Source: Candidatus Woesearchaeota archaeon
GTDB lineage: Archaea; Nanobdellota; Nanobdellia; CAZCWL01; CAZQAZ01
DNA: 64,000 nt
Direction: 5' to 3'
NCBI GenBank assembly: GCA_964591855.1
Contig: CAZQAZ010000001.1
Location: 7,591 to 71,590 of the forward strand
Part shown: one piece after another, positions 2,426 through 59,147 of the stretch
Position numbering within the stretch: position 1 is the first letter of the stretch
Layout of the letters: each line of letters begins with the position of its first letter
Position numbers and translations under genes: made by a program
Notes under the pieces: model-generated
What the model saw: the letters and a program-made list of their open reading frames with translations, nothing else
Told to the model about the DNA's origin: nothing
Databases searched by the model: none

Positions 2426-2487
2426 GGTTTATATTTGTTGACTCTTTATTTTAATTTAACTTGATAGGGTTGAAATTAAGGAAGGAG

Positions 2488-36018: not shown

Positions 36019-36097
36019 GAGTTCTTCACCTCAAAACCAAATCAAATTTGAAGAAAGTGTTAGAGCATTGCCCTTTCCCTCGCTATGGGAAGTACTC

Positions 36098-36175
36098 GGG
36101 CAATCGTCTTGCGGCTTAACTTCCGTGGTCGAGACGAGAACGGGTGTTTCCCGCAAGACTATGGCCCTAACATTT
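36098..36175 (+). ncRNA. Candidate structured small RNA (hairpin followed by an ACA trinucleotide) in a roughly 200-nt gene-free gap.
   Basis: gggc(aatcg)tcttgcgg-[35 nt with internal ccgt/acgg pairing]-ccgcaaga(ctat)ggccc, then ta-ACA. This gives a 4-bp lower stem, a small internal loop, an 8-bp upper stem, and ACA 2 nt after the helix. It loosely resembles an H/ACA guide architecture. No C/D boxes and no SRP RNA motifs. Strand is uncertain. Confidence 0.15.
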
Positions 36176-37575: not shown

Positions 37576-37953
37576 ATGAGAGCCGTGGCAGGTATACTAA
37601 ATAACAATGGAATGGTGCTGATAGTGAGGTATAAGAATCCTATCAGAGAAGAGTACCAGTGGTTTTTCCCAATGGTTAAGTTAGATGAGGGCGTATCTCC
37701 AAAAAAGGAGATAAAAGAATACTTCAAGGAGAAGTTTAATCTCGATGTGGATATTACTGGAGACGTAATAAAGTTTGAGCCAAGTTATGATCCTGAGACC
37801 ATAATCTACATTTATCCACTTAAGATAAGTGGAGGATTCCTAAAGTCTTCAGGCGACTTTGAGATAGTTAAGTGGATAAACCCTAAAGAAGTTCCAAAGT
37901 ACTTCTCTGCAAGATTGACTTACAATATAAGTAAGTTTCTAGATCTTGAGTGA
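37576..37953 (+). CDS. Small hypothetical protein, possibly a divergent Nudix-fold protein.
   Basis: ATG 37576 (MRAVAGILNNNGMVLIVRYK...). The N-terminus resembles a Nudix fold start, but the Nudix box is not convincingly intact. The stop overlaps the tRNA-Arg(CCT) 3' end on the opposite strand. Confidence 0.3.
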   Translation: MRAVAGILNNNGMVLIVRYKNPIREEYQWFFPMVKLDEGVSPKKEIKEYFKEKFNLDVDITGDVIKFEPSYDPETIIYIYPLKISGGFLKSSGDFEIVKWINPKEVPKYFSARLTYNISKFLDLE

Positions 37954-38024
37954 GCCTGGCGGGATTTGAACCCGCGACCTGCAGCTTAGGAGGCTGCCGC
38001 CCTTCCAGACTAGGCTACAGGCTC
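37951..38024 (-). tRNA. tRNA-Arg(CCT).
   Basis: Minus-strand read gagcctgtagcctagtctggaagggcggcagcctCCTaagctgcaggtcgcgggTTCAAATcccgccaggctc + a. 7-bp acceptor stem, anticodon loop ctCCTaa. Confidence 0.85.
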
Positions 38025-38984: not shown

Positions 38985-39407
38985 ATGAAGGTGGAAGAAG
39001 ACCCATTGTTCCAAAGCTATAATCAGATCTTAGAGATCTGGGAAAATAGAGATACGAATCCTCTAGCTCATCTTGCCTTGATCCCTGTGGAGGCTGGGTT
39101 AAATGTTGTAAAGAAAAGATATGGAATCATAGAGACCCGTGCTCTTAACATGGTTAATAGCAAAGATGAAGAGATAGCAGGGCTTGGTGAGTGTGTCTAT
39201 AATGGTGTAAGAGATAGAAAGTTAAGAGAGCCTTTTGATCAACGTGTTGGCATTGCGACAGAGATGATAGGTCTTATAGGTATGATGAAGGAATATCTTG
39301 GAAATAGAAGAGAAATGGAGCCAAGTGAAAAAGAAAAAATTGAGACAAATATAGAGTTTGAATTGGGTAAGGTTAAACATCTTTTGGATGTTCTTTCTGG
39401 GGTATAA
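38985..39407 (+). CDS. Hypothetical protein.
   Basis: 140-aa ORF between galT-like and tRNA-Arg, no recognisable motifs. Stop abuts the tRNA on the opposite strand. Confidence 0.4.
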   Translation: MKVEEDPLFQSYNQILEIWENRDTNPLAHLALIPVEAGLNVVKKRYGIIETRALNMVNSKDEEIAGLGECVYNGVRDRKLREPFDQRVGIATEMIGLIGMMKEYLGNRREMEPSEKEKIETNIEFELGKVKHLLDVLSGV

Positions 39408-39408
39408 G

Positions 39409-39481
39409 TGCTCCCGCCGGGATTTGAACCCGGGCCACACGGACCGCAACCGTGCGTTCTTCCAGACTATACTACGGGAGC
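39409..39481 (-). tRNA. tRNA-Arg(GCG).
   Basis: Minus-strand read gctcccgtagtatagtctggaagaacgcacggttGCGgtccgtgtggcccgggTTCAAATcccggcgggagc + a. 7-bp acceptor stem, anticodon loop ttGCGgt. The D stem has one A-A mismatch. Confidence 0.75.
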
Positions 39482-39708: not shown

Positions 39709-41790
39709 TTAGAAGAGAGTAGTCTGCCCTTCAGGAACAAGAGGGCTCTCCCTTAAGAGAGACTCTATTTTATACTTGTTTGATTTGTCTTGAAGTGGAA
39801 GGATTGTGTCTAAAAGTAAACCCACTTTACCACTCTTAAGGCTTCTCTTTCCATTGCTTTCCCTTCCAAAGAGACTATCCAATATCTCTTTGTGTCTTTT
39901 TACAAGAGGTACAACTTCATTCTTTCTCCTCCCCTTGATCTGGTTAGCTATAGACTTTTGCCTCTCTTTAAATAGGGAAGAGTAAACAAAGTAATCCATA
40001 CCAAGAGTAAACTCTTTAATTCTAAGTTCTTCGGGGACTCTTTCCTCTTTTAGTTCTTCTTTTATAACTTCAAGATAAGGAATTAAACTTTCTAGGTCGT
40101 TGTTAAAAACCATATTTAATACGCTGCCAAGGACTTGCTTCTCATAAGGAACTATGTAACCATAGTTCTTCCAAAAGTTTGCACCTATGGAAAATATCCT
40201 GCCTTTAGATTGGAAGAACACCACTCCCTTAGAGCACGATAACAAAACATCTGCAACATCGTATACAAAATAAGAATCAGATGGAATAACATCCTTAGCA
40301 AATAAAAAGTCCTTTGAGACATTTAAAACAACACTATCTTTGAGATCTTCCTTAAGTTTTTTCTTGTAGCTGTCTAATCTCTTTCTAAACTCATCTGGAT
40401 GAATTAAGTGCCTCTTGTAAAATTCTATATGTCCAAGTTCCCCACCTTCACACATCTCTAAGTCAAAAAGTAAGTCTTTAAGGAAGGCGCTGGCAACCTC
40501 TGTTTGAAGCACACCTTCCCCAAGAACATCTTCTAACCCAAAGAAGATGTCTCCTAGAAAAGAAAAGTTTGGATAAAGAACGTAAACGTCCTCAAACCTT
40601 CCTCTTATTATCTCTCTATTAAAGCTTTTCCAGACTTCTCTCATGAACTTCTCTTTAGGGTCAAATTTCTCGAACTTCTTTCTGTCAATTTGGTGTTTTG
40701 GTCTTGAGTAACCTAAGGACCAGAAGTATCTCTCCTTGTACTTCTGGACGAGCCTCTCATATGATGTTGCTCCAAATGTCGAAGGATCTACTCCCAAAGC
40801 CATGGACAAAGATAATACGTCTTCAATTATGTCCATGCCTATGCCGTAACTTAACTGCACATCTTTCATGTTGTACTCAAGTATTGTTCTTTTCGCTTCG
40901 TCGTTGCCCTCTAAAGCTTTCTCAAGATGGCGTGCAAGCTCTTCATGTGAAAGAGCTTTAGTATCGTTTTTCAGATATTCGGCAAGTGTGCTTAGCTTAG
41001 CATTTGGAAAAATCTTGAAGAGAGAAGGGATGTATGTATCTATGAGTATTCTTCCATCGAGCACAAGCTTTGGAGGGAAGAACCTACCTAATTTTTTTGG
41101 AGGTTTTTTGTTCGGTCCTATATTAAATCCTCTTGGATGTTTCTCCATAAGCTTTGGAAGATCGAAGCCTCTTAAGTTTTGATTCATGATTATTAATGGA
41201 TCAACTTTCATAACAAACCTTCTAAACTTTTCAATCAAATCCATCTCATTATCTGCGACAATAACACTGTAACTTGTATCAACTTCAAATTCTGTGGTGG
41301 TGTATATTCTTTCATCCACTACATCCCCATCTTGGGCAGTAAGCACAGCTATAGAATACACTTCGTCTTTAAAAGGATACTTTGTTTCTATGTCGAAGCA
41401 TAAGAGCTTATCATTTAGCAGATCTTCCAAACTCGCCTTACCAAGAACATTAAGATCATCATCGACAATCGATAGTGGAAAGCCAAGTTTCCACCTAAGA
41501 ATCTCTAAATAACTTGGCTTCTCTTTAGGGAAGCCCCTTACGAACCTTTTTCTTAAATCGAAATACCTTTTTGGAAGATTGACCTCTAGAGAGCGATTTG
41601 TAACACCTAGCTTTCTTTGTTTCATGAAGGCCTTTAGATTTCCATATGATTCGTAAAGCTCTTCAATTTTGGACTTTGTGTTGGGATAAGAATAAAAGGT
41701 GTATGGGATTCTATGGGGTAAAACTTTTGATTTGCCATAGTCCCTCAGAATGACTTCTTTGTTTGTCACACCCGTTAGTAGGTATTCCAT
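39709..41790 (-). CDS. Compact family-B DNA polymerase-like protein (693 aa). Exonuclease motifs are intact and motif A is present, but motif C is degenerate.
   Basis: Collinear with archaeal PolB. N-terminal IPYTFYSY. Exo I LLCFDIETKYPF. Exo II IIMNQNLRGFDLPKL. GRILIDTY then Exo III EYNMKDVQLSYG. Motif A-like EDVYVLYPNFSF with Asp retained. Motif B-like SIGANFWKNYGY. No YxDTD motif C was found; the nearest is VFNNDLES. Confidence 0.6.
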   Translation of the reverse strand: MEYLLTGVTNKEVILRDYGKSKVLPHRIPYTFYSYPNTKSKIEELYESYGNLKAFMKQRKLGVTNRSLEVNLPKRYFDLRKRFVRGFPKEKPSYLEILRWKLGFPLSIVDDDLNVLGKASLEDLLNDKLLCFDIETKYPFKDEVYSIAVLTAQDGDVVDERIYTTTEFEVDTSYSVIVADNEMDLIEKFRRFVMKVDPLIIMNQNLRGFDLPKLMEKHPRGFNIGPNKKPPKKLGRFFPPKLVLDGRILIDTYIPSLFKIFPNAKLSTLAEYLKNDTKALSHEELARHLEKALEGNDEAKRTILEYNMKDVQLSYGIGMDIIEDVLSLSMALGVDPSTFGATSYERLVQKYKERYFWSLGYSRPKHQIDRKKFEKFDPKEKFMREVWKSFNREIIRGRFEDVYVLYPNFSFLGDIFFGLEDVLGEGVLQTEVASAFLKDLLFDLEMCEGGELGHIEFYKRHLIHPDEFRKRLDSYKKKLKEDLKDSVVLNVSKDFLFAKDVIPSDSYFVYDVADVLLSCSKGVVFFQSKGRIFSIGANFWKNYGYIVPYEKQVLGSVLNMVFNNDLESLIPYLEVIKEELKEERVPEELRIKEFTLGMDYFVYSSLFKERQKSIANQIKGRRKNEVVPLVKRHKEILDSLFGRESNGKRSLKSGKVGLLLDTILPLQDKSNKYKIESLLRESPLVPEGQTTLF

Positions 41791-41810
41791 ATTAATTGGT
41801 CTCGAAAAAA

Positions 41811-41822
41811 CTTTAAATTTAT
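41811..41822. promoter_or_regulatory. TATA-like element in the 36-nt divergent gap between the PolB-like gene and ORF 41827.
   Basis: ctttaaattta. On the minus strand this reads taaatttaaag about 22 nt upstream of the PolB-like ATG (41790), consistent with a leaderless or short-leader transcript. Confidence 0.3.
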
Positions 41823-41826
41823 TCCG

Positions 41827-42771
41827 ATGTGGAGTTTTATGTCCAGAGTCCCAAGAGCATGGAGATTCTCAGATCCAACTAAATGGGAAAGAATTACTCC
41901 AGTTGAACCTTGTGCTAAGTATCCTAGAAGTAAAATAGAATGGTACATGGAGGTCAACAACAACCATAAGTCAAGAACACCCAGGATTTATTCCATATAT
42001 GAGGACTTATTCGAGCAGAACTTAGGGAAGCTAGAAGAATACGAGGTTATTTTTATAACAGGTCTATCTCCAGACCTAACAGAGGTTCCAAACCCATTTG
42101 GCTTCTATCCCAAAACAAGGGGTTTAGACTTGTTCCAAGATCAGAATAGACTGTCGAATGAGATAATGAAAATACATGCAGAGCTTGGGCCAGAGAAGCT
42201 TGAACACATACTTTACTTCCCTATTGCTCCGATAAGTATGCCTGCAAGAATAAAAAAGAAAGGTGATCTTTTGATTTTAGAGCATCCACTAAGGGAAGTC
42301 GTGGACGAGGCCAATAGGAGAAATGGCAGGGGGTTTGGAAGGACGTATAAGATACTAGACCTAAAAAGTAAAAGGTTTGATCTCACACCACACCTTGGTA
42401 ATTATGAATTCTCAAGGTTTTATTATCAGAAGCCACAAAGTGGGCGAGATTTTTACGATGATAATGAACCACAAATATATGAGATATGCAGAAAGTACGA
42501 CATAACCAGAGATGAGCTGCCTTATCTTGTTGGGCTGGCAAGATACATTCACAGGAGAATGTTGGGTGAGAGATTAAAAAGATATGTAGACATTCTTGGA
42601 CTTGAAAACCCACCATTGTATGCCTTAAACACATCTTATGCTTTTGACGTGATGAAAGATGTAGCTTGTACTTCACTTAAGATTGGAAGAAACTTGGAAT
42701 TTCCACACTTAGGCGAGGCGGAGCCATCGGCTCTTAATGTGCTGAAAGGTTATTTGGAGGAGTTCATATGA
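41827..42771 (+). CDS. Hypothetical protein, first gene of an operon divergent from the PolB-like gene.
   Basis: 314 aa, no recognisable motifs. Stop overlaps the next ORF start (ATGA). Confidence 0.45.
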   Translation: MWSFMSRVPRAWRFSDPTKWERITPVEPCAKYPRSKIEWYMEVNNNHKSRTPRIYSIYEDLFEQNLGKLEEYEVIFITGLSPDLTEVPNPFGFYPKTRGLDLFQDQNRLSNEIMKIHAELGPEKLEHILYFPIAPISMPARIKKKGDLLILEHPLREVVDEANRRNGRGFGRTYKILDLKSKRFDLTPHLGNYEFSRFYYQKPQSGRDFYDDNEPQIYEICRKYDITRDELPYLVGLARYIHRRMLGERLKRYVDILGLENPPLYALNTSYAFDVMKDVACTSLKIGRNLEFPHLGEAEPSALNVLKGYLEEFI

Positions 42772-43838
42772 AAAAGTGTCCACACTTTCCATTTATGTGT
42801 GACAGGAATGTGTGTGTTAAGGACGATGATAGATATACATGTGGGTATGATCTACTCAGTCTTTTAGACGAAGAAGATGTTAAGCTATTTGAAGACGATG
42901 CAAAGAAGAATGGGTACCTTGCTTTTCCAATAGAGCTTGGCTTGGCGATGCTGAGATACACTAGTCCAGATGTTTTCTTAGAGGATGGAAAGTCTATCTC
43001 GCTTAGAAAAATATTGGAGGACTATCCCATCTATCCACATGAGATAACTTCTGGAGTAGAACATGAGAAGTATAATTTAACAGCCAGCGAGTTCAATACA
43101 CCTTGTGTGCTTTCAAGAATAATCCAAAAGACAAACTTGGATAGCAAGAATGTCTATGCAAGAATAGGAAGGGTAATACACTTCTTGATGAATGAGCAAT
43201 TGGACAAGCTAATACACAATGAAACACTTTTGAGGATGGGGGCTCCAGCTATGGACAGAAGGATGTATTGTGAAAGAACCTTGGAGTTTGTACACAAAGA
43301 CATCATTGTTCATGGCCATCCTGATGCAATGTTTGAAGTCAAAGACATGCTTGGAGTTTTTGACAACAAGAGATCTATGCATGTTAAGCATACTTACTTT
43401 ACACAGGAGACCATCTACGCCTTAGCCGAAGATCCAAATAGGGAGAGATACTTATTAGTAGTTGCTACTAGACCATATGGTGAGATAGAGTTTGCTGAGA
43501 GACTCCCTAACTTAGATGTAGCTTTGATAAGGAGAGGTGGAGAGGTTATAAGGAGAACACTTAAGGACATAGAAGAATCTTATATGAGACAAGCAGAACT
43601 TTTAAGATCAGATAACCCATTTAAACACGTAAACAAAAGGAACTGCGTAACAAGCTCTGGACCATGTTTTAACTATGAGATATGTAAAGAGCTGTACAAT
43701 CTATGGAGGATTGAGAGAACAGAGCTTATAGACTTGCTAAATGACAAATACACTGAGGAGGTTATGGTTGATAAAGGCTTCCTTGAGAGGGGAAAACACA
43801 TATTACCAAAGAAGCTGGCCCTTCCGCAAGATTTATAA
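42768..43838 (+). CDS. Cys-rich putative PD-(D/E)xK nuclease (Cas4/RecB-like) (tentative).
   Basis: 356 aa. N-terminal Cys cluster CPHFPFMCDRNVCVKDDDRYTCGY. Candidate nuclease motifs IIVHGHPDAMFEVKD / VFDNK (D...D/ExK) and QETIY (QxxxY). C-terminal C-x5-C-x5-C (NCVTSSGPCFNYEIC). The layout resembles Cas4/AddB-type Fe-S nucleases, but this rests on motifs only. Confidence 0.35.
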   Translation: MKKCPHFPFMCDRNVCVKDDDRYTCGYDLLSLLDEEDVKLFEDDAKKNGYLAFPIELGLAMLRYTSPDVFLEDGKSISLRKILEDYPIYPHEITSGVEHEKYNLTASEFNTPCVLSRIIQKTNLDSKNVYARIGRVIHFLMNEQLDKLIHNETLLRMGAPAMDRRMYCERTLEFVHKDIIVHGHPDAMFEVKDMLGVFDNKRSMHVKHTYFTQETIYALAEDPNRERYLLVVATRPYGEIEFAERLPNLDVALIRRGGEVIRRTLKDIEESYMRQAELLRSDNPFKHVNKRNCVTSSGPCFNYEICKELYNLWRIERTELIDLLNDKYTEEVMVDKGFLERGKHILPKKLALPQDL

Positions 43839-43846
43839 TTCTGCAC

Positions 43847-44131
43847 GTGAGACATTTCTTGATGGAGAAGGAAAATCTTGAGATGGAAGTCCTAAAGGAT
43901 AGTATAAGCGTTAGCGTAGAGGGCTTATTACTTCCAAGATACACTTTGGAATATCTCTTACGTGTTAAAGTGAATGGAAAAGATTACCTTGTGAAAGAGG
44001 AGAGGAAGGCATATACTTACTTAGGTATGAGGTGGTATATCGAGAAAAAGCTTTCCACCTATGGGGATGAAGTGTATAAAAAGGCGCTGAGGTTACTTAA
44101 TGAGGAATGGAAGAAGTGGAATAATTTTTAG
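43847..44131 (+). CDS. Small hypothetical protein.
   Basis: 94-aa ORF completing the 41827-44131 co-directional cluster. Confidence 0.35.
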   Translation: MRHFLMEKENLEMEVLKDSISVSVEGLLLPRYTLEYLLRVKVNGKDYLVKEERKAYTYLGMRWYIEKKLSTYGDEVYKKALRLLNEEWKKWNNF

Positions 44132-44138
44132 ATCCGAT

Positions 44139-45674
44139 TTACTCTTTAATTATTCTGCTCATTATGTCTGCGAATGCTGGTCTTGTTATAAACACACCTA
44201 TTGATATAGCTATTATTGTTGTGATTGCAAATCCTCTTAATATTCCTGCTCCAGCAAATGCAAGGGGTATCATTGCTGCTATTGATGAAACAAATGCAGC
44301 AACCACTATGAAGAAAGCTCTTTTAATTCTGTTCTTAATTGAAGTTTCTTCTTCCTTCGATCTTCCCCTTAAAAGCTCATCAACTATCACTATCTGATCG
44401 TCTAAACCTGTACCAACTGCTGCCAACAAACCTGCTATCGATGGAAGATCCATAGTCCAGTGTATTATGCAAGCTATGCCAAGCGTGGCGACTATTTCTA
44501 ATAAAGCTATAAGAACCATAGGTAGGAATATCTTTATACTTCTATACCTTATTAACATCACCACATCAACGAAAACTATAGCAAGTATGAACACCATGAA
44601 TACATTCTTAGCAAATTCTTTACCAAGTAAAGGAGATACTGTGTTCATCTTCTCAACTTCTAATGATACAGGTAAGGAACCTGACTGAAGAATGGCTTGC
44701 ATTCTTTTTAGTTCACTCTCAGCTTCAATTTGTGTAGCTCTAGTACCTGTGATAACAGCAGATGTAACTATCTTCCCCTTTAGATTAGAGACGATGTTAA
44801 GTGAACCTCCTTCTACAGGTTTGCCATCTATATAAAAATCAAGTGTTTCGTTAAGGTAGCATTGTTGTCCTCTGCAGACTTCAGATAATCCAGCCGTTAC
44901 ATTAGCGAATCTCTCGGCAGCCTTCTGAGATATGTCAATCTGTAGTGAATATTGCCATAACTCTTGCCCAGAGCTGGTTACTATTCTATTTATAGTTCTT
45001 GTACACTGTGGAGGACCGCTTAAACAGATACCAACTATGTCTGTACCACTAAAGACTGTTGTATTCCCAATCTTAGCTTCAAACTTTCCTTGCTGGCTTA
45101 GTAACCTCTCAACTTCTTCTCTTGACACACCCGCAAACTCAATTCTTATGTACTGCTTTCCATCCAACCCTTTGATTGGGGTAACTGGTATTTCTTTGAG
45201 ACCATAAACATTAAGTCTCTGCCTTAAGATGCTAAGAAGACTTTCCATTTCCTTGTCGTTAAGTGGTCTCTCAGGCCTTAACAGAACTTCAGTACCACCC
45301 ACAATCTCCAACCCAAATTCTACATTGGTCCTTTTAACATCTGATACGGTCAAGCCAAGAGTGTCATTTATTTTGAATGGGTAAGCTTCCACAGTTTTGT
45401 AGACGTAAGGGAACTTCTTAACTTTGTATTTCACATAGACTATAGAGTTGTTAAGAGATCTTTCAATGGAATAATAATCAGTCACATCTTTTACTTCCAT
45501 ACCATTTATCTCAGTTATAATTGCACCTATTGGAATGTACTTTGATCCAGGCATAACAGCTTGCTTCACAACGACACCGCTTGGGTGTAGTTTAGGCTCT
45601 ATGGCTAATACTGAGAACACTGCAAGTAGTATAACAAGTATTATCTTCCAGTCTCTTAGTATTTTAATCCCCAT
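44139..45674 (-). CDS. secD: Protein-export membrane protein SecD.
   Basis: 511 aa. N-terminal TM, large periplasmic domain, C-terminal 6-TM region with GLDDQIVIVDELL and FFIVVAAFVSSIAAMIPLAFAGAGILRGFAITTII, as in archaeal SecD. Confidence 0.8.
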   Translation of the reverse strand: MGIKILRDWKIILVILLAVFSVLAIEPKLHPSGVVVKQAVMPGSKYIPIGAIITEINGMEVKDVTDYYSIERSLNNSIVYVKYKVKKFPYVYKTVEAYPFKINDTLGLTVSDVKRTNVEFGLEIVGGTEVLLRPERPLNDKEMESLLSILRQRLNVYGLKEIPVTPIKGLDGKQYIRIEFAGVSREEVERLLSQQGKFEAKIGNTTVFSGTDIVGICLSGPPQCTRTINRIVTSSGQELWQYSLQIDISQKAAERFANVTAGLSEVCRGQQCYLNETLDFYIDGKPVEGGSLNIVSNLKGKIVTSAVITGTRATQIEAESELKRMQAILQSGSLPVSLEVEKMNTVSPLLGKEFAKNVFMVFILAIVFVDVVMLIRYRSIKIFLPMVLIALLEIVATLGIACIIHWTMDLPSIAGLLAAVGTGLDDQIVIVDELLRGRSKEEETSIKNRIKRAFFIVVAAFVSSIAAMIPLAFAGAGILRGFAITTIIAISIGVFITRPAFADIMSRIIKE

Positions 45675-46586: not shown

Positions 46587-46606
46587 CTTATAAATATTTA
46601 TAAAGG
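46587..46606. promoter_or_regulatory. Palindromic A/T TATA-like element in the divergent secF / envelope-operon intergenic region (possible bidirectional promoter).
   Basis: cttataaatatttataaagg; the core ttataaat|atttataa is a perfect 16-nt palindrome. It sits about 25 nt upstream of secF ATG (minus strand) and about 22 nt upstream of ATG 46627 (plus strand). Confidence 0.4.
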
Positions 46607-46626
46607 TGGAGCTTCTTGTAAGAAAT

Positions 46627-47838
46627 ATGAGAAAAGCGTACAAAGCTGCTCCTCTGATCGTTATAGCCATGGCGGGCATGATAATATTCTACCTTATTAT
46701 GATATACCCAACAGAAAGAGCAGAGTTATTGGGTTATTTACATAACAACACATCAATTGGACAGCAGTATATACACACGCGTTCTGTTACTCCCGGGGCA
46801 ATAGTTGATACTTACTCTAGTATAGGGTATGTTGGGCAGGCAATGGGTCAAGAGTTAGATAAGATAGTGATATCCAAAGTAGATTTGGAGTACCCTTTAG
46901 TCAAAACTCAAAAAAAAACTGTTTCTTCTTTTGTTTTGACTTCAAACATACTAAGAGCAACGCCCTATGAGACTTATGTAGACATAGAACCCTCAGCAAG
47001 CAGTGCTGAGGTTGAGATAGATATTGGAGACGTTTCTGGAACCCCAAAGCTTATAGTGGAATTCAATGGCAATACAATATTTTATTCATCTGTTCAATCT
47101 GGTGAGAAGCTTAAGATAAAAGTTCCAAAGTCCATGCTATCAGCAGTTAACACTCTGACTTTGCGTTCAAAGTTTGTTGGCGTGAACATATTCTCAACGC
47201 AGACAATTACAGTGCAAGAAGTGAGAGTTTACTCCATAATGTATGATCCTTTAAGAGCAAAGGATAGTTATTACAGAGACTTAAGTGTGGATCCAAAGGG
47301 TTTTGGCTCAATGGTTTTATCCTTTGGCACCACTTCTCTTGGGGAGGCAGCTAAGGTAAAGATCACACTCAACGGAAAGACCATCTTTAATAAAGTTCCA
47401 AATGAATTAGAATCCATGAGGAGTGGCCTTGTTGGAATACCCTTACGTAAAACAAATAACTTAATAACATTCGAAACAGAGAAGGGAGGAGTTTACACTT
47501 TAGACAATGTTAAGTTCTCATTCTATGCTGAAAAGACAGGTAGGGCTCAGCAAAAAATAGTATTTGATGTCCCAGCGGATGTTTTTGCTTACGATAAAAA
47601 TGTTACAATAACTGCTTACATCGGTGAGGTTTTAATACCAGGTACTTTGGAGTTCAACTTAGAGTACCCAGGTGTTTCTTACATAGCTGACATAAGCTCA
47701 AAACCTGGACCTGTTACAGTACAAATAGAAGATCCACAAACAGAGTTAAGACCTTATGGTAACTTGTTAATCTTAGATTCTCCAGATGGAAGGTTTAGAG
47801 TCGATAAGATTGAGATAAAAGTAGAAGATGTTGAGTGA
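46627..47838 (+). CDS. N-terminally anchored extracellular protein (hypothetical), first gene of a 6.5-kb envelope-protein operon.
   Basis: ATG 46627 (MRKAYKAAPLIVIAMAGMIIFYLIMIY, TM). The track start GTG 46606 lies only about 5 nt from the palindromic TATA, so ATG 46627 is preferred. The large ectodomain has sequons. Confidence 0.5.
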   Translation: MRKAYKAAPLIVIAMAGMIIFYLIMIYPTERAELLGYLHNNTSIGQQYIHTRSVTPGAIVDTYSSIGYVGQAMGQELDKIVISKVDLEYPLVKTQKKTVSSFVLTSNILRATPYETYVDIEPSASSAEVEIDIGDVSGTPKLIVEFNGNTIFYSSVQSGEKLKIKVPKSMLSAVNTLTLRSKFVGVNIFSTQTITVQEVRVYSIMYDPLRAKDSYYRDLSVDPKGFGSMVLSFGTTSLGEAAKVKITLNGKTIFNKVPNELESMRSGLVGIPLRKTNNLITFETEKGGVYTLDNVKFSFYAEKTGRAQQKIVFDVPADVFAYDKNVTITAYIGEVLIPGTLEFNLEYPGVSYIADISSKPGPVTVQIEDPQTELRPYGNLLILDSPDGRFRVDKIEIKVEDVE

Positions 47839-49904
47839 GTATGGCTAAGAAAGGTATCAAGGACATAATAAAGGAACATCCTGAAGACATAATAGGGATG
47901 GCTGCAGCTCCAGAAGCTGCAGCACCTAAGCTTGTGAAGGATGTACTTGAGACTCAGAAGGAGACTGCTGAGGCTGAGAAGAAAGCAGCCAAAGCTAAGG
48001 AGGCTGCCGCGAAAAGTCAACCCTCTGGAGGTGGAGGAGGTTCTTCTGGTGGTGGATTTGGCGGTGTAGGTGGGGGAAGATTTAATAGAGTAGGCATTTG
48101 GGCAGGTTTAGGTATAGTTTTTATATTTATCATAATTATACTTATAGGAGCGATGGTCCCAACTGCAAGACATATGCTCTCCACACAAGGGAGCTTTAGC
48201 TTTGGGCTAGGAGAACTCATAAAACAAATAGCAGGTATTTCTGTAGTTGGACCCGTTGAGACGGAAAAGGAAGTTAAATCCGGACCAACACTAGCTACAA
48301 CACCCTTCTATTCATTTAGGATAGATTCTGTAGAAGTATCTCCAATGAAAGGGCAGATGTTCTTCCCAGGTGGTTCTGTAACAGCTAAGAACTTTGACAT
48401 AGAAAAAGGAAGCACATACGAAGTTAGGAAGGCAGGAGAGACAATACTAACCAAAACTGCAAGTGAGAGTATCACAGCCCAAGCTGCCTGTGACTCTGCT
48501 GTTAATGAGCTAAATGGTGATGATAACCCAGACAACGATGTCACACCAGATGATATAGTCGTAGTTTATAGTGGTATGTACTATCCTTGTGGCGATGATC
48601 ATGAAATAAAGTATATAAGCTCGGAAGGTGCAGGCCAAACTTTTTCCATCAGAGTTCTTGTTAGGAATACAGGAGACAAAGAGGCTGACAATATGACTTT
48701 AGTTATACTCCCAAAGCCAAAGGATTCGTGGTGTAACATTGGCGGGGAGGATAAAATGTTATATAAGCTTGGTTCTGGAGAGTCAACAGAGTTCTGTGAC
48801 ACAGTATACCTAGATGAGAGTGGAGGTTATACTAACTTCGACGCGTGTGCTAAAAGCTTTACATTGGAGAAAGCAGGTACATACTTCTCATCTTGTAAAG
48901 TTAAGTTTGGATGCGTGAATAACTTTGTAGGGAAAGTCTCGGGGATATTTGAGAATACAGGTTGTGAATGTGACCCTTCGGCTGAAGAAGGATGTGGGTG
49001 GTTAAATAATGTTTACACTCCAAATGTTTATGCAAGACTTGTTGGACCATACGTCTCTACAACAAGACTTGATATACAGTTCATGGATGGAGATTATTAT
49101 GACATCCTCACGAATCAAAACTTGTTTTATCCGTTTGTAAGAACTGCTACTAATTCTTGGGGTGCAGTAACTCTTTATCTTGATACAGCAAGTGAAAAAC
49201 AGCCAATCTTATCCTTTAAGAGCGCTCCTATGGATACGTTCACTTTAAGAGTAAAATACGATGTCCCTCAAAAGAAAAGTGGAAGAATATTAGAGCCATT
49301 TACTGAGAACATACCAGGAACCAAGTCAGCAACGTATGGAGACATACAAAAGATCTTGAATAGAAAGAACAGTGATGTATGGCCATGGGAAGGTGATGCA
49401 ACCACAACTTTCAACAAGTACTACAAAGAAAGACTATACATGTTGATACCATCTACACTTTTGTTCATTGGGACTCCTTATGAGAATCAGTTTAAACACA
49501 AAGGAGGTGAATTTAAGAATAGCATAGTGATTAACAATTTGGTATGTGGAGACTATGTGTATGATAAACTTTGTGATCAAAATTCAGACGAATATAAAAA
49601 CTTCATAAGTAGAAACCTTGAGTTTAAGAAGGTAGCAGACAGTTACTGTAGAGAAACTGCTAAGTCAAATGATGGGGAATATAAAGGTATAGGTTACCTC
49701 GTTTGTGAGGTTTATGATGGCAAGATAGGAAACATTGACTACGAGTTAAAGGAAGGTGAGGAATATCAGTTCCCACTTCATGTACCTAACTTGAATGGAG
49801 AATCTGTTAACAGAGTGACATACTTAATAAGGGCTGATTTATTATACTACTTTGTATATGAAAAGGACCAACAAAATCCAATTGTTATATACAGCAAAAT
49901 TTAG
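47835..49904 (+). CDS. Membrane protein with A/E/K-rich and Gly-rich cytosolic N-terminus, single TM and large Cys-containing ectodomain (hypothetical).
   Basis: 689 aa. GTG 47835 overlaps the previous stop; ATG 47841 is an alternative start. SGGGGGSSGGGFGGVGGGRF, then TM IWAGLGIVFIFIIIILIGAMV, then a roughly 580-aa ectodomain. Confidence 0.5.
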   Translation: MSMAKKGIKDIIKEHPEDIIGMAAAPEAAAPKLVKDVLETQKETAEAEKKAAKAKEAAAKSQPSGGGGGSSGGGFGGVGGGRFNRVGIWAGLGIVFIFIIIILIGAMVPTARHMLSTQGSFSFGLGELIKQIAGISVVGPVETEKEVKSGPTLATTPFYSFRIDSVEVSPMKGQMFFPGGSVTAKNFDIEKGSTYEVRKAGETILTKTASESITAQAACDSAVNELNGDDNPDNDVTPDDIVVVYSGMYYPCGDDHEIKYISSEGAGQTFSIRVLVRNTGDKEADNMTLVILPKPKDSWCNIGGEDKMLYKLGSGESTEFCDTVYLDESGGYTNFDACAKSFTLEKAGTYFSSCKVKFGCVNNFVGKVSGIFENTGCECDPSAEEGCGWLNNVYTPNVYARLVGPYVSTTRLDIQFMDGDYYDILTNQNLFYPFVRTATNSWGAVTLYLDTASEKQPILSFKSAPMDTFTLRVKYDVPQKKSGRILEPFTENIPGTKSATYGDIQKILNRKNSDVWPWEGDATTTFNKYYKERLYMLIPSTLLFIGTPYENQFKHKGGEFKNSIVINNLVCGDYVYDKLCDQNSDEYKNFISRNLEFKKVADSYCRETAKSNDGEYKGIGYLVCEVYDGKIGNIDYELKEGEEYQFPLHVPNLNGESVNRVTYLIRADLLYYFVYEKDQQNPIVIYSKI

Positions 49905-49932
49905 GTGATGCGAAATCAAGAAAGAACTCTTT

Positions 49933-51024
49933 GTGTTTGGAGTGGTTTTGGTAGCCATGCTTGTAATGGGCTGTATAGGTGTTGGTCCGACTGAAGAAAA
50001 GGAAACAGTCCTTAGACCAAATCAAGGTGTTGGCGTCGTACCTGGTGGAGTTTATGTTTTAGACTCCAAGGTAAAGCCTGGTGCTATAACATCCGTAGTT
50101 GTAAAAGTAAGAAATAATTTAGAAGGACAGCCGGCTAATAACATAGTAGTTACTTTAGATAATGTAGCCCCCCTAAGAATACTTTGTAGGGGTGGAAGTG
50201 GTGCGGTGGAAGAGTTCTTTGATAACTTCCCAAATTATAAAGAGGGATACGAAGCTTGTGGAAGAGATTACTCTCTAGACTTAGATTCCAATTTAAAACT
50301 TAATCAGCATGGTGTGGTTAAACTTGATCCTGGAGAGGAGGTTGAGTTTATCTGGCCAATACGCACGCCGGACAGAGCAGTTCTCGCAGGAATGAAATAT
50401 GAGCACACTCTTTACTACACAATAGATTATGACTACAAGCTTAAAGCACAGGAAAGTATTGTTTACCTATCAAACCAAGAGTACTTGAGATTGAAGCAGG
50501 AGAACAAAACCTTAAATTATCCATCAACATTTAGACAGACAGCAGGTGAGTTCAAGCTCTACCCACAAACTGTTAATCCATTCCTTTACTATCCATCGCA
50601 AGGTATAGCCCAAGTTGCATCCATTAACTACAACATAGAAAACAACGGAGACGGATTCATACCTCCAGATTCAAAGCTTGTTATAGTTCTTCAGTATCCT
50701 AAAGAGATGGAACCTGACGAAACTTACTCTGAAAAGAGATGGATAAAGGGAACAGACTTAGATAATGAGAGAATCAAATCCATATTGAAGCACTTCCCAG
50801 ACATAAACTTAAATAGAATACTTTACAAAGAACTTGATCCTTCCTTCTTAAGGAAGGGCTTTAGGTATCCAATCTCTGCACCTTTAACTCTAACTCAAGA
50901 CGAGCTTAACTCCCTTATAGAAAATAGCATCCCTAGTAAAACTTATAATATTCAAGTTTATGTATTTTATAAGTACAGGTTTGAAAAATCAAGCAAAATA
51001 ACGATCTATCCTGTAGAAATATAA
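49933..51024 (+). CDS. Putative lipoprotein with CARDB-like N-terminal domain.
   Basis: 363 aa. Signal peptide with lipobox-like LVMGC. GGVYVLDSKVKPGAITSVVVKVRNNLEGQPANNIVVTLDN resembles a CARDB fold signature. Confidence 0.5.
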   Translation: MFGVVLVAMLVMGCIGVGPTEEKETVLRPNQGVGVVPGGVYVLDSKVKPGAITSVVVKVRNNLEGQPANNIVVTLDNVAPLRILCRGGSGAVEEFFDNFPNYKEGYEACGRDYSLDLDSNLKLNQHGVVKLDPGEEVEFIWPIRTPDRAVLAGMKYEHTLYYTIDYDYKLKAQESIVYLSNQEYLRLKQENKTLNYPSTFRQTAGEFKLYPQTVNPFLYYPSQGIAQVASINYNIENNGDGFIPPDSKLVIVLQYPKEMEPDETYSEKRWIKGTDLDNERIKSILKHFPDINLNRILYKELDPSFLRKGFRYPISAPLTLTQDELNSLIENSIPSKTYNIQVYVFYKYRFEKSSKITIYPVEI

Positions 51025-51037
51025 GGAGGAAAAAAGA

Positions 51038-51994
51038 ATGAGAAATGAAATAATTGTTTTTGTGGCAGCCATACTAGTGCTTTCAGTAATGTACGGTTGT
51101 GTAGACGTTAAATCTTTTATACCTGGCGGAGAGAAGGAACAACAGCAGCAACCAACAGGCGGTAGAGTAGAGTACTCTAAGGCTGTTTTTGGGGAGTCAA
51201 TGGATGTGACAGAACTTTATCCCGGACAAGCAACAACTCTCTTAGTAACAATTAATAACACATGGGAAAACCCTATCAAAAATGTAAAGATTCAGTTGAA
51301 GGGAGCAAGCTTTGTAGTCAGCAGTAGTGTTTTGGACACGATGGTAAGCGTTGACAAGAAAGAAGCAACAGTAAACAATGTAAACCCTGGAGCTTATTCC
51401 CAAAGATCTTTTGTGATAAGAGTTCCAAGAAAGTTAGTTGAGCGAGTAAATGTTTACCCAAGAATCTGCTTCGACTACAATCAAACAATAGCTAAGGACA
51501 TCGTCCTTGTCCCAGACTCAGCAACACAAGTTACCACACCCTCACATTACACAAATGAACCCCTAAGTGTTAGGATTCCAACAAATAAAATACTAGCAAC
51601 AGAGTCTATTGTTGGTGAAGGAGGAACAGAGTCATACTTAAGTTACACAGTTGGTGCACAAAGCGTTGATAGCATTGAGAAGCTTTACAACTTCACATTT
51701 GATATAAGTACAGACGATTACTTGGGAGGCATTAACAGCATATCTCTTGCAGAACTTTCTTCGGACAATGGAGACTTTGCTTGTGAGGAGTACACGTTCA
51801 CAGATGATCAGAAAAGAGAAAGGTGTTACCTTACTAAAGAATACGAACCACAGATAAAAACATTATCAGGAAGTGTAGCAGTAAGCATTGATAATCCAGT
51901 AGAGTCTGAAACATATGAAAACGTAGAGATTGTAGCAGAAGGAAGGTACTGTGTCAACCTTCCAACTATAACAATAAATGTGAAGAAAGTATGA
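51038..51994 (+). CDS. Putative lipoprotein with CARDB-like domain; paralog of the next gene.
   Basis: 318 aa. Signal with SVMYGC. LYPGQATTLLVTINNTWENPIKNVKIQLKG. Shares the (P/A)RICFDY motif with ORF 51991. Confidence 0.5.
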   Translation: MRNEIIVFVAAILVLSVMYGCVDVKSFIPGGEKEQQQQPTGGRVEYSKAVFGESMDVTELYPGQATTLLVTINNTWENPIKNVKIQLKGASFVVSSSVLDTMVSVDKKEATVNNVNPGAYSQRSFVIRVPRKLVERVNVYPRICFDYNQTIAKDIVLVPDSATQVTTPSHYTNEPLSVRIPTNKILATESIVGEGGTESYLSYTVGAQSVDSIEKLYNFTFDISTDDYLGGINSISLAELSSDNGDFACEEYTFTDDQKRERCYLTKEYEPQIKTLSGSVAVSIDNPVESETYENVEIVAEGRYCVNLPTITINVKKV

Positions 51995-53142
51995 GCCAGA
52001 AAAACCTTTTATTTTTTATTATTTTAATTTCAGTAGTGGTTATTCTATCAGGTTGTGTTAACCCTCCAAAGACCGAAGAGAAAGAAGGACCAAGTTATAT
52101 TCCTTCTGTCTTCTCAGCTAATTTAACATTCAGTAAACCTTTAAGTGGGGGAAGACTTGTCTTAGCACCTGGAGAGCAAGTCACTGCATATCTTACATTC
52201 GCCAACAAGGGTAACGCTCCAGCAAGAAATGTTAAGGCTATTCTTTATGGATGCAACTTAGATATCAGTTCGAACACAGGTGAAGAGGTATATACTTTAG
52301 ATAGTGTTAATCCAGACGATACGAAGACACTAACGTGGCAGATTGTAGTCCCTGAGGACTATACTGGCAAATGTTCACTCACTGCAAGAATTTGTTTCGA
52401 CTACACAACAGAAGGATATAAAGAGATTGAGATAGGAAAACAAGGAGAGGTGTCTTCAAGTAGGAGTGTGGAGTACACAAGCCCAGGCCCTATAAACTTA
52501 TCTTTCAACTTTGCAGATAGATATGTGGTATACAAAGATTACTCTCCCATAACCTTTAAGATCAAATACAAGAATGTTGGTGGAGGAAGAATACAATACG
52601 TTGGAGAGCCAGATAAGACAGATCATGTTGACTACATAGAAATGACTGTAAGAGACGGTGCAGCTTTCTTAGGCGGCGACTTCAGTGAATGGACGCATGT
52701 TGAAATCCCAAAGTACTACTCCAGTTTACAAGACGCATTCTATAAGGAAGAATTTGTACCAGCAGGACTATCTGGAGAATACAACTTCGAGCAGGTATTC
52801 AATAGAGAAGTATATGACATGTACATAAAAGATAAATACACTACACCAGAAGATATTCTCGAGCAGGAAGAAGTTGACTTTGGATTCTACACAATGAACT
52901 ACACACTCAGTGAAGATAGTCCAGCATGGAACTTGAGCATGTGGTATGATGAGGACCACGAAGGTAAAGGTTGGGCGGATAGGAACGAGCTTAAGTTTGT
53001 GGGTAATACCTTAGAAAAGAGAGCTACTTTTTATATTAATAAGTCAGCTGTAGAAGGATCTGAAACATTCAATGTTGGTACCAAAATAAAGTATTCTTAC
53101 TGTATTACAACAGGGACAACAAGTGTTGTTGTAGAAGAATGA
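51991..53142 (+). CDS. Putative lipoprotein with CARDB-like domain; paralog of the previous gene.
   Basis: 383 aa. Signal with ILSGC. LAPGEQVTAYLTFANKGNAPARNVKAILYG, ARICFDY. Start overlaps the previous stop (ATGA). Confidence 0.5.
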   Translation: MSQKNLLFFIILISVVVILSGCVNPPKTEEKEGPSYIPSVFSANLTFSKPLSGGRLVLAPGEQVTAYLTFANKGNAPARNVKAILYGCNLDISSNTGEEVYTLDSVNPDDTKTLTWQIVVPEDYTGKCSLTARICFDYTTEGYKEIEIGKQGEVSSSRSVEYTSPGPINLSFNFADRYVVYKDYSPITFKIKYKNVGGGRIQYVGEPDKTDHVDYIEMTVRDGAAFLGGDFSEWTHVEIPKYYSSLQDAFYKEEFVPAGLSGEYNFEQVFNREVYDMYIKDKYTTPEDILEQEEVDFGFYTMNYTLSEDSPAWNLSMWYDEDHEGKGWADRNELKFVGNTLEKRATFYINKSAVEGSETFNVGTKIKYSYCITTGTTSVVVEE

Positions 53143-54063: not shown

Positions 54064-54800
54064 TCTTCAAGCACCTTGAACTCCAAACCTTCTTTTTTTG
54101 CATTTGTCTCCAAGCATTTGATTATGTCTTGCATCATTTTTTCTCCTTCCTTATAGCTCTTTGCCGTCACTTCTATATTGTACTTTGGAGACGCAACAAC
54201 TGTGGCCTTGGCTTTACCGAGGCATGCTTTGAACATGGACTTAAGCTTCTCCACACCATCTCCTGCAAGAGTTGTAAGCTCAACGAGTCTTCTTACTATT
54301 ACTTCTTTCTCTTTAAGCTGATCTTTTATGAAAGCATAAAGTTTTTTCTTGTGCTTTGTTTTAAGCTCATCGAGTACCTCGTCCCCAAACTCTTTTATTG
54401 AGTCGTAGAAGTTACTATACGAGCCAAATGTGGTTAGAATTTCATTCTTTATGCTTTCGACTTCTTTCTTCTCTATCTTGTTCTCCTTAGCAAACACATC
54501 TATTAGTTTGTCTATCTTTTTATTGAGTTTCCTCTCCTGAAGCTTTCTCTTTCTCTCACCAGAGCTTACCCTCTTAAGCGAGGCAATGACTTGATTCCCT
54601 TTTACATCAACAACTTTTAGTACTACGATTTGACCTTCTCTTACAAAGCTTTTAATGTTCTTTACCCACGACGATGAGATCTCAGATATGTGTACAATAG
54701 CTGTAGAGTCGTAATTCTCTAAATCAGCAAAGAAACTATGTGGTGTGATTTTCTTTACAACACCTATTACTACATCTCCTCTCCTTGGAAGTTTTGCCAT
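54060..54800 (-). CDS. eif2a: Translation initiation factor 2 alpha subunit (aIF-2alpha).
   Basis: 246 aa. N-terminal S1 domain (GDVVIGVVKKITPHSFFADLENYDSTAIVHISEISSSWVKNIKSFVREGQIVVLKVVDV), then helical and alpha/beta C-terminal domains. Conserved eif2a-nop10-PAC2 order. Confidence 0.75.
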   Translation of the reverse strand: MAKLPRRGDVVIGVVKKITPHSFFADLENYDSTAIVHISEISSSWVKNIKSFVREGQIVVLKVVDVKGNQVIASLKRVSSGERKRKLQERKLNKKIDKLIDVFAKENKIEKKEVESIKNEILTTFGSYSNFYDSIKEFGDEVLDELKTKHKKKLYAFIKDQLKEKEVIVRRLVELTTLAGDGVEKLKSMFKACLGKAKATVVASPKYNIEVTAKSYKEGEKMMQDIIKCLETNAKKEGLEFKVLEE

Positions 54801-54882
54801 ACCTATTGTACGATAACAGGGAATATAAATCTTACTAAATTTTCCGGTAATATTTATATAGCAGAATTGTTCTATATCACTA

Positions 54883-57800: not shown

Positions 57801-59147
57801 TCTATACAGAATACTACATTTAGTATAAATTTAGTCGGTTTAAACTCATCAGTTCTATATTACTATTCGGTAAACTGTACGGATCTCGCAGGCAACTCTG
57901 TGGAGTCATCTATTTCAAACTTTACGACAGCTGAGAGTGTGTACGAAACCCTTGATAATTCCTCTACGAATTATGTAACTATAAATGTTACACAAAATGG
58001 AGTAGTATACAAGTTGGTGGAGTTTGAATTGAATGTTAAGGAAAGCACTTCTGCAAGTATAAATGTCACGAAATACAGCAGTAATCCTGAGTCTGTGGGT
58101 TTGGGTGTTAACTCTCTTAATAAGTATATCTCTATAGACTCAAATTTAAATTCGAGTAAGATAGACTATGTCATTATTAAAGTTTACTACACAGATTCGG
58201 AGGTACCAGAGGGTGTAGACGAATCTTCACTGAGATTATACTGGTTTAATGAGTCAAGTAACGAGTGGGAAAGAGTTCCTGGTGGGGTGGATACTGTAAA
58301 TAATTATGTTTGGGGGAACACTACACACTTTAGTACTTATGGTATAGGAGGTTTGCTAGCAAATGGTCAAAGTTGTTCCTCAAATTCAGAATGCGCTTCA
58401 GGTATCTGTTGTGAGGGTTTATGTTCGTCTACATGTGGAGCCGAAGCAGAAACAGGAGGAGCGGGAGCTGGGGTAGATTTAGATAGCTATTTCTGGTTCT
58501 TTAAGAGTAATGTGCAGGCAGGAGAGACTGTGGATATAGATGTAAATAAACCTGAAAATCCTATTGGTAGCATAAAAATTAGGTTTGGCACAAGTGTAGA
58601 CAATATAAGGATTAATATCCTTAAACTACACTACAAGCCAATGGGGCTTCCTGACTTGTTGGATGTTTATTCTTATATAAGTATCTTACACTCAGGCCTA
58701 GAAGAACAGAATATCGAGAAAGCAGAGATAAACTTTAAGGTGGACAAGAGATGGCTTTTAGATAGAGGTTATGATAAGTTGGGTATTGTTCTTGCAAGAT
58801 ATGAGAAGGGAGAGTGGACGGATCTAAGTACGGACTTTGTTAAGGAGGATAGCGATTACTATTACTACAAAGCGGAGACTCCTGGATTTTCGTATTTCGC
58901 AATAAGGTATGAAGAGCCGGAGGGCGTGGAGGAGCAACCACGACCTACCGTTGTTGAGCCAACAGGGCCAACAAAGGAAGAGGAAGAGTCAGCCAAGCAG
59001 CCGGTAAAGAATGTAACAGAGCAGGTGGTAAGTGAGGAAAAGAAGCATAATTATGTTTATACAGTAATACTCATATTACTTATTGTGTTAATCTCAGCCT
59101 TTCTCTTTGCGATAAAGGGAAGGTTCTTAGCGAAGGGTAGACGCTAA
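54883..59147 (+). CDS. Giant type-I membrane-anchored, sequon-dense cell-surface protein (1421 aa; S-layer/adhesin-like).
   Basis: Start ATG 54883 (MDLYKNIFSLVAFLILLGAIFATS, signal peptide). The track start 54738 would overlap eif2a. Very dense NxT/S sequons. Cys-rich EGF-like GQSCSSNSECASGICCEGLCSSTCG. An E/K/P/T-rich stalk. C-terminal TM VYTVILILLIVLISAFLFAI plus basic tail KGRFLAKGRR. Confidence 0.75.

Follow-up and report, generated by a model that had tools for sequence, protein, structure and literature searches.

A three-part module of a divergent PolB-like protein and a predicted Cas4/RecB-like nuclease in DPANN-type archaea

In a 64-kb stretch of DNA from a Candidatus Woesearchaeota archaeon (GCA_964591855.1, contig CAZQAZ010000001.1), hereafter called the window, a gene for a divergent PolB-like protein faces two overlapping genes, A and B, on the opposite strand (Table 1; positions are window positions unless another locus is named). 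These genes make up a three-part module that is present in very distant DPANN-type archaea. A and B correspond to the two parts of a single protein, and B is predicted to be a Cas4/RecB-like nuclease. That the triad is, as a whole statement, a chromosomal and probably PCNA-linked module of DPANN-type archaea that processes DNA ends or flaps has in our estimate a probability of about 0.6. We are highly confident of the composition of the module and the nuclease identity of B taken together, and the biological role is a tentative assignment that we would put at somewhat under even odds.

To compare loci, we fetched the contigs of family members and searched their six-frame open reading frames (ORFs) with local hidden Markov models (HMMs) of the PolB-like protein, A and B. 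In all of the 8 independent lineages whose contigs extend far enough, the gene directly upstream of A-B is a PolB-like gene that is read from the opposite strand; the remaining five loci were too short to show its position. The E-values of the PolB-like HMM in the other lineages ranged from 0 to 6e-9, and each of the triad proteins is 19-41% identical between lineages. At these identities the pairwise values are saturated, and the correlations of a co-evolution test of the PolB-like protein against A and B were therefore uninformative. One of the lineages, L012, belongs to Candidatus Nanoarchaeia, which are Nanobdellota of the kingdom Nanobdellati and thus DPANN. The flanks of the triad vary, with SecDF and tRNA genes in the window, an RNA polymerase operon in L005, the arginyl-tRNA synthetase gene in L009, and wyosine and iPGM genes in L012, and each long contig has one triad copy. 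In pattern scans of genome contigs, one alignment gave 0 matches and another found one metagenome-assembled genome (MAG), and the scan of metagenome contigs found one short locus.

In all 8 lineages, a spacer of 46-58 nt separates the PolB-like gene from A. It contains at its centre a single TATA-like element that is near-palindromic (TTTAAAT or TTTATATA), lies about 22-27 nt from each start codon, and is also kept in the GC-rich L017. This suggests a shared bidirectional promoter with a single TATA element and leaderless or near-leaderless transcripts. Because both transcription units diverge from one such compact spacer, they are probably co-expressed. A scan for sigma-70 promoters and terminators, which is inapplicable to archaea, gave counts at the level of shuffled sequence. 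As gene order and spacer are kept in eight lineages at the low identities given above, the triad is a strong candidate for a core function in DNA maintenance, and it would be one without a described counterpart.

The initial annotation had considered a quartet consisting of the PolB-like gene and three genes on the other strand. Conservation in other genomes was found for the PolB-like gene, A and B, and not for the third of these genes, the 94-aa gene C, for which reason we take the triad as the unit. Homologues of gene C were found only in the same-species contigs L002-L004 and in no other lineage downstream of B, and the gene has no significant family match; it is lineage-specific and, though probably co-transcribed, outside the conserved module. 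A fourth conserved partner was not found, and the genes that lie downstream in convergent orientation in L011 and in L016 are mutually unrelated.

The nuclease B and its partner domain A

By its relatives and its predicted structure, B appears to be a RecB/Cas4-like PD-(D/E)xK nuclease, which is Cas4-like but lies outside the Cas4 family proper (PF01930). It starts with a Cys4 module (C4, C11, C16, and C25), continues with the core motifs H138, HGHPD186, FD199-N-K201, and Q213-ETI-Y217, and ends with three cysteines that are spaced C293-x6-C300-x5-C306 in the window protein and C-x6..12-C-x5-C in the family. Two additional conserved cysteines, C113 and C168, precede the nuclease core. When 1.84 billion cluster representatives were searched exhaustively with a profile, 68 matches were obtained at E<=1e-3. 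Two high-ranking matches, P0013 (2848 aa, with a 59-residue period) and P0077 (463 aa), are translated tandem repeats in which one short profile segment matched many times, and both were rejected as family members. Word-indexed homologue searches with B, A, and the PolB-like protein returned a single relative in each case, that of B being 56% identical.

Conservation was counted in 67 aligned members whose identity to the window protein is about 25-30%. The catalytic positions D186 (66/66), D199 (61/61), K201 (62/62), and Q213 (62/62) are invariant, and Y217 is kept in 59 of 62 and H138 in 64 of 66 members. The cysteines of the N-terminal module are present in 48-52 of 51-52 members, C113 in 55 of 63, C168 in 58 of 65, and C293, C300, and C306 each in 54 of 58-59. 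The N-terminal cluster of four cysteines that had been pointed out in the initial annotation is thus real and conserved across the family. Of the nuclease motifs named there, HGHPD, FDNK, and QETIY are conserved, whereas EVK is not a motif, as E190 and K192 are not conserved, and the true motif III is D199-x-K201. The C-terminal C-x5-C-x5-C had been miscounted and is in fact C-x6-C-x5-C. From the sequence, C113 or C168 together with the three C-terminal cysteines corresponds to the '1+3' layout of iron-staple nucleases, with non-canonical spacing. B may therefore carry an iron-sulphur (Fe-S) cluster, and the N-terminal Cys4 module is a putative extra metal site.

An AlphaFold2 model of B that was generated with a 30-sequence alignment had a predicted local distance difference test (pLDDT) score of 91.9 and a predicted template modelling (pTM) score of 0.91. 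In a Foldseek search of the PDB, the top matches were the nuclease domain of F. magna DinG (FmDinG; 3.3e-5), the Cas4 protein SSO0001 (1.6e-4), RecE (2.5e-4), and AdnAB (4.1e-4), and further matches included MGME1, ACE1, the Cas4 protein Pcal_0546, lambda exo, Cas4-Cas1-Cas2, AddAB, RecBCD, and EXO5. The top fold matches are almost all PD-(D/E)xK nucleases of the Cas4/RecB type, with probabilities of 0.9-1.0 for most of the best 25. Because of these matches, the Cas4/RecB-like identity that had been proposed at the outset, and for which a fold comparison had been set in advance, holds at the level of the predicted fold. Family profiles point the same way. PF12705 (PDDEXK_1) is matched by 17 of 30 B relatives at E<=1 (best 7.7e-7), and P0014 with 25.0 bits exceeds the gathering cutoff of 22, P0015 scoring 22.0; PF01930 (Cas_Cas4) is matched weakly by 2 of 30 relatives (best E 0.0048). 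The window protein matches neither family. PADLOC and PHROG gave weak Cas4 and exonuclease matches over the core of B, and the B family profile aligns weakly with the AdnB nuclease, exactly over motifs II-IV.

In every locus recovered, gene A either directly precedes B or forms the N-terminal part of a fusion with it. The fusions, of which there are about 15 representatives with 650-870 aa, carry the B domain in the C-terminal half, and their first ~310 aa match the gene A profile with E-values from 1e-17 to 1e-5 (P0025, P0035, P0054, P0060, and others). The AlphaFold2 model of A is an alpha/beta domain (pLDDT 86.5, pTM 0.87) for which Foldseek found no neighbour in the PDB (best E 0.12) or BFVD (best 0.31). 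A had zero family matches in Pfam, NCBIfam, PADLOC, and PHROG, and 0 matches in a sequence-profile search of the PDB. There was no fold match to RadA/Rad51 or to P-loop proteins, and neither a helicase nor a helicase-derived domain was detected. Few residues of A are conserved, namely S77, D97, P131, P135, H149, K171, T265, and S266.

As a separate observation, two genes for proteins of 769 and 318 aa without Pfam matches are located in L014, about 1 kb downstream of the 3' end of the PolB-like gene. Their sizes recall a fused A-B and domain A, and they are matched by none of the PolB-like, A, and B profiles.

The PolB-like protein and the sliding clamp

In Pfam, the PolB-like protein matches only an exonuclease domain (DNA_pol_B_exo1, 1.7e-7). 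A profile of four PolB-like sequences matched archaeal PolB structures (KOD, 9N, Tgo, and Pfu) with E-values of about 2e-20, and the match consists of two stretches, the exonuclease (136-366 in chain numbering) and the thumb (596-764); in the latter, profile positions 597-760 align with KOD PolB residues 596-764. Unlike these two parts, palm and fingers gave no alignment to PolB structures.

The three exonuclease motifs of the window protein are of the DEDDy type, with D133/E135 in Exo I, N205/D210 in Exo II, and Y306/D310 in Exo III. D133, D210, D251, Y306, and D310 are invariant in nine PolB-like sequences, and the Exo I glutamate is present in 7 of the 9. In the same alignment, no conserved acidic residue was found at the positions of motifs A and C. 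The position of motif C reads S-K-D, S-N-K, S-D-R, or S-N-R instead of D-T-D, within a context that is still recognisable (V-I-N-x-S-x-x-F-L-F). Because Exo I-III are kept and the acidic residues of motifs A and C are not conserved, the PolB-like protein looks polymerase-dead yet exonuclease-competent.

The C-termini of the PolB-like proteins are QTTLF in the window, QTRIVGF in P0080, and QDTLF, QLSLF, and QLELL in others, so that the five complete sequences end with Q-x-x-L-(F/L) or QTRIVGF, resembling a PCNA-interacting protein (PIP) box. In L008 and L013, the gene directly downstream of B encodes PCNA, and in L008 it is followed by bPH_2 and NUDIX genes; in L014 a PCNA gene is found about 6 kb upstream of the PolB-like gene. 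The Q-x-x-L-F tail and the PCNA genes near the loci hint at a link between the PolB-like protein and the sliding clamp.

Proposed role, known systems and rival readings

In the mechanism that we propose, the dead polymerase would hold a primer-template junction or a DNA end by means of its thumb and degenerate palm, probably on PCNA, and its DEDDy site would shorten the 3' strand. A-B, bound to the PolB-like protein, would cut or degrade the 5' strand or flap with its RecB/Cas4-type site, and replication-coupled repair or recombination would thereby be supplied with trimmed ends or gaps. What we infer here is the polarity of the enzymes, the formation of a complex, the binding to PCNA, and the biological role itself. 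A more far-reaching version, in which the triad is a housekeeping machine, possibly DPANN-confined, with a PCNA-tethered, 3'-trimming dead PolB and a new-fold A that couples an Fe-S 5' nuclease to it, and replaces systems such as Dna2 or Mre11-Rad50/NurA-HerA, we regard as rather unlikely; the housekeeping status in particular we infer from the flanking genes only. If true, it would be a compact substitute for end resection or flap processing in reduced genomes and an archaeal dead-PolB scaffold comparable to that of Pol epsilon.

DPANN archaea have very small genomes, and their replication and repair are little studied. In this setting, the PolB-like protein would represent a third kind of archaeal 'dead polymerase', with the exonuclease kept and the polymerase lost, B would represent a new Cas4/RecB-like nuclease subfamily that has a second, putative Cys4 metal site, and A is a domain of ~310 aa without a structural neighbour in the two structure databases searched. 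In the searchable literature, we did not find a description of a triad of a PolB-like protein, an unknown domain, and a Cas4-like nuclease, although one may still exist.

B shares with Cas4 (SSO0001 and Pcal_0546; PF01930/COG1468) the PD-(D/E)xK core fold (Foldseek 1.6e-4 to 7e-3), the motif order D ... (D/E)xK ... QxxxY, and cysteines that flank the core, with one or two upstream and three downstream. It differs from Cas4 by about 150 extra residues, which comprise the N-terminal Cys4 module and a helical C-terminus, by downstream cysteines spaced Cx6-12Cx5C instead of Cx2Cx5C, and by its context, as B is always joined to A and paired with a PolB-like gene, no cas genes such as cas1 or cas2 are among the Pfam-annotated neighbours of any locus, and a CRISPR array was not found in the window. 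The solo-Cas4 genes reported from DPANN archaea fall into COG1468 (PMC5704561), a different family from B. At the sequence level, the best family for B is that of the RecB-type nucleases (AddB/AddA, AdnA/AdnB, and RecB; PF12705). In AddB, the nuclease is C-terminal to a non-catalytic-looking domain, and conserved cysteines flank the core; A-B has the same arrangement. However, the partner of A-B is a PolB derivative and not a UvrD-like motor, no helicase is detectable in A, and the hosts are archaea. Dna2, EXO5, and MGME1, which are Cas4-like nucleases of eukaryotes or of mitochondria, act on 5' flaps and ends. MGME1 and EXO5 are among the fold matches of B, and the proposed replication-linked role at ends or flaps and the possible Fe-S cluster would resemble Dna2 and EXO5. 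In contrast to these enzymes, B has no helicase domain and no sequence-level membership in their families, and the likeness in role is by analogy.

PolB2 (Dpo2) has as conserved partners PPB2, a helical protein of ~90 aa, and an inactivated RadA (iRadA), a repair role has been proposed for it, and some members of the system carry clamp-binding motifs (PMC4104785; PMC11791011). Like the PolB-like protein, it is a divergent PolB paralogue with substituted polymerase motifs and a conserved neighbourhood with partner proteins. ExoI shows no conservation and ExoIII is absent in PolB2 (PMC7544198). The PolB-like protein keeps Exo I-III where PolB2 decays, which is the reverse pattern. We know of no PD-(D/E)xK nuclease in PolB2 neighbourhoods. 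A PolB2-PPB2-iRadA mutasome was considered for the window and rejected, as the Exo motifs are present, A has no RadA/Rad51 fold match, and the 94-aa gene C is not conserved. In Pol epsilon, the C-terminal PolB module is inactivated and has been kept as a structural or scaffold part (PMC7544198). This replisome-associated module is likewise a polymerase-dead PolB, but its exonuclease is also inactive and it is fused to an active PolB, whereas the PolB-like protein has intact exonuclease motifs and stands alone. Casposons and other self-synthesising elements encode PolB, Cas1, and sometimes a Cas4-like nuclease, and the triad likewise combines a gene of the PolB family with one for a Cas4-like nuclease. 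The triad differs from casposons in that Cas1 is lacking in the annotated flanks, terminal inverted repeats and target-site duplications are lacking, the conserved polymerase carboxylates are lost, and the flanks are housekeeping genes.

Several observations weigh against a PCNA-linked end- or flap-processing module. The Exo I glutamate is absent in the two most divergent PolB-like proteins, those of L012 and L017, so that the exonuclease may be inactive in some lineages or these sequences may be imperfectly aligned. Most members have a non-canonical PIP-like tail, with canonical PIP-box spacing only in P0080, and the adjacency to PCNA genes was seen in about three lineages, of which L008 and L013 share downstream genes and may be related. 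With respect to B, the TM-scores of the Foldseek matches are modest (target-normalised TM up to 0.42), which we attribute to the extra domains of B, and the window protein itself has no significant Pfam match and only a faint NCBIfam match to the AddA nuclease; its assignment as a nuclease rests on its relatives and on the predicted structure. The last point would also suit the view that B is a structural or regulatory protein, that is an inactive PD-(D/E)xK fold with relic motifs, as inactivated domains of this fold are common. However, at an identity of only about 25-30%, the invariance of D186, D199, K201, and Q213 (61-66 of 61-66) is the signature of a maintained active site, and we consider an inactive B highly improbable. 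Alternatively, the PolB-like protein could be an active polymerase with non-canonical residues, in which case the triad would be a holoenzyme for translesion or repair synthesis with A-B as an accessory. For this there is the precedent of PolB2, which was once thought to be dead and has the conserved partners named above (PMC4104785; PMC11791011), and it agrees with the retained PolB thumb, with D401 of the window protein near the position of motif A, and with the conserved residues D377, D443, and E550. But D401 is replaced by N or H in distant lineages and acidic only in the close relative P0080 and in L016, motif C, in the four forms given above, has no conserved Asp, the palm aligns to no PolB structure although exonuclease and thumb do, and the Lys and Asn of motif B are unrecognisable. 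An active polymerase is therefore unlikely in our view.

The initial annotation had been reminded of replication or integration modules of mobile elements, and an integrated element (casposon-like, a pPolB plasmid, or a virus) that had inserted beside the tRNA-Arg gene would account for the position of this gene directly downstream of the PolB-like gene, while pairings of PolB with a Cas4-like nuclease do occur in casposons and archaeal viruses. This reading was not supported, as flanking repeats and a shift in composition are lacking and neither Cas1 nor an integrase was found in the annotated flanks. There is neither a direct repeat of the tRNA end nor a pair of terminal inverted repeats around 39.3-44.4 kb, the G+C content is the same as in the surroundings, the adjacency to a tRNA gene does not recur in other lineages, and the polymerase is without catalytic residues. 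Pattern scans of limited sensitivity found no relatives in IMG/VR, and the loci have just the three genes in common, with nothing else travelling along. The earlier statement that the window has no CRISPR array, cas1, or integrase is correct for the array, as a search of the 64 kb gave no array of tandem or CRISPR-like repeats, and correct for cas1 and integrase among the Pfam-annotated genes of the annotated flanks (32.8-53.8 kb), the rest of the window being unscreened. Overall, a mobile element is very improbable. A role in defence against viruses or plasmids, with the nucleases degrading invading DNA as might solo-Cas4 or the Argonaute-associated Cas4 (ACE1), deserves somewhat more weight but is still unlikely. 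It would fit the weak PADLOC matches of the B family to Cas4 and Aga_Cas4-like models, the occurrence of ACE1 among the fold matches of B, the presence of a DNA methyltransferase and an AAA protein near the L014 triad, and the proposal that the solo-Cas4 of DPANN archaea serves defence or repair (PMC5704561). On the other hand, neither the PolB-like protein nor A is matched by a PADLOC model, housekeeping genes immediately flank every long locus, and there is one copy per long contig. The architecture and the spacer have been kept across the eight divergent lineages, unlike the turnover of defence islands, and the PCNA linkage and the PIP-like tail point to the replisome. With PADLOC matches confined to the weak Cas4 ones, the triad does not appear to be a known defence system.

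Locus layout and surroundings

Table 1. Features of the window and of the compared loci. The remarks on spacers give the arrangement of A and B and the source of the lineage.
Feature	Locus	Position	Strand	Remarks
PolB-like gene	window	39709-41790	-	693 aa
Divergent spacer	window	41791-41838		48 nt; TATA-like element TTTAAATTTA at 41812-41821; A-B split, also L002 and L004
Gene A	window	41839-42771	+	310 aa; 314 aa if the ATG is 41827
Gene B	window	42768-43838	+	356 aa
Gene C	window	43847-44131	+	94 aa; 89 aa from ATG 43862
tRNA-Arg	window	39408-39481	-	directly downstream of the PolB-like gene
secD	window	44139-45674	-	bounds the four-ORF locus on the other side from tRNA-Arg
Divergent spacer	L005	9951-10000		A-B fused; L005-7, JGI metagenomes
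Divergent spacer	L009	9943-10000		A-B fused; GCA_902385155.1
Divergent spacer	L011	1772-1825		A-B split; Logan SRR7615342
Divergent spacer	L012	8990-9042		A-B split; MAG Candidatus Nanoarchaeia archaeon
Divergent spacer	L014	9955-10000		A-B fused; L014/15, GCA_053533115.1
Divergent spacer	L016	1439-1488		A-B split; GCA_043801255.1
Divergent spacer	L017	2442-2492		A-B fused; GCA_016211135.1
PCNA gene	L008	1882-2625		
PCNA gene	L013	974-1753		
PCNA gene	L014	1057-1794		
Two-gene pair	L014	3181-6443	-	769 aa and 318 aa
5S rRNA gene	window	36057-36172	-	Rfam 66.7 bits
Second tRNA-Arg	window	37950-38024		
ORF	window	38985-39407	+	140 aa
Five-gene run	window	46606-53142	+	410, 689, 363, 318, and 383 aa
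Giant ORF	window	2461-15552	+	4363 aa
Giant ORF	window	19240-26352	+	2370 aa
Giant ORF	window	54738-59147	+	1469 aa

The three plus-strand ORFs (41827-42771, 42768-43838, and 43847-44131) facing the PolB-like gene on the minus strand had been placed correctly by the initial annotation. Its gap of 36 nt between the PolB-like gene and A applies to the ATG at 41827; the ATG at 41839, which gives the 48-nt spacer, is better supported, as it is favoured by the gene callers, by the conserved N-terminus MSRVPR..., and by the position of the TATA-like element. A and B overlap in the sequence ATGA, and a GGAGGA is located immediately upstream of the B start.

The neighbours are archaeal housekeeping genes, which encode ribosomal protein L15e, NAC, the RNase P subunit Rpr2, diphthamide synthase, a GalT/HIT protein, SecD, SecF, and PAC2. 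The surroundings also contain a 5S rRNA gene and four tRNA genes, and the G+C content is flat (0.36-0.41), with the module matching the surrounding window. The 5S rRNA gene stands alone, with no 16S or 23S rRNA gene nearby, and a second tRNA-Arg gene is present besides the one next to the PolB-like gene. Between the GalT/HIT-like gene and this tRNA-Arg gene lies the 140-aa ORF, which has no family match and is also called as a gene in the public contig.

Just past secDF and on the opposite strand, there is a run of five tightly packed or overlapping genes, none of them with a recorded Pfam match, and in the 689-aa product a Gly-rich stretch at the N-terminus precedes a hydrophobic segment. The five genes may be an uncharacterised envelope or appendage operon. 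Three giant ORFs are found on the plus strand of the window. Those of 2370 and 1469 aa have zero Pfam matches, and the product of the 4363-aa ORF is probably a surface protein, because it contains right-handed beta-helix/NosD, Big_13, and CarboxypepD_reg domains.

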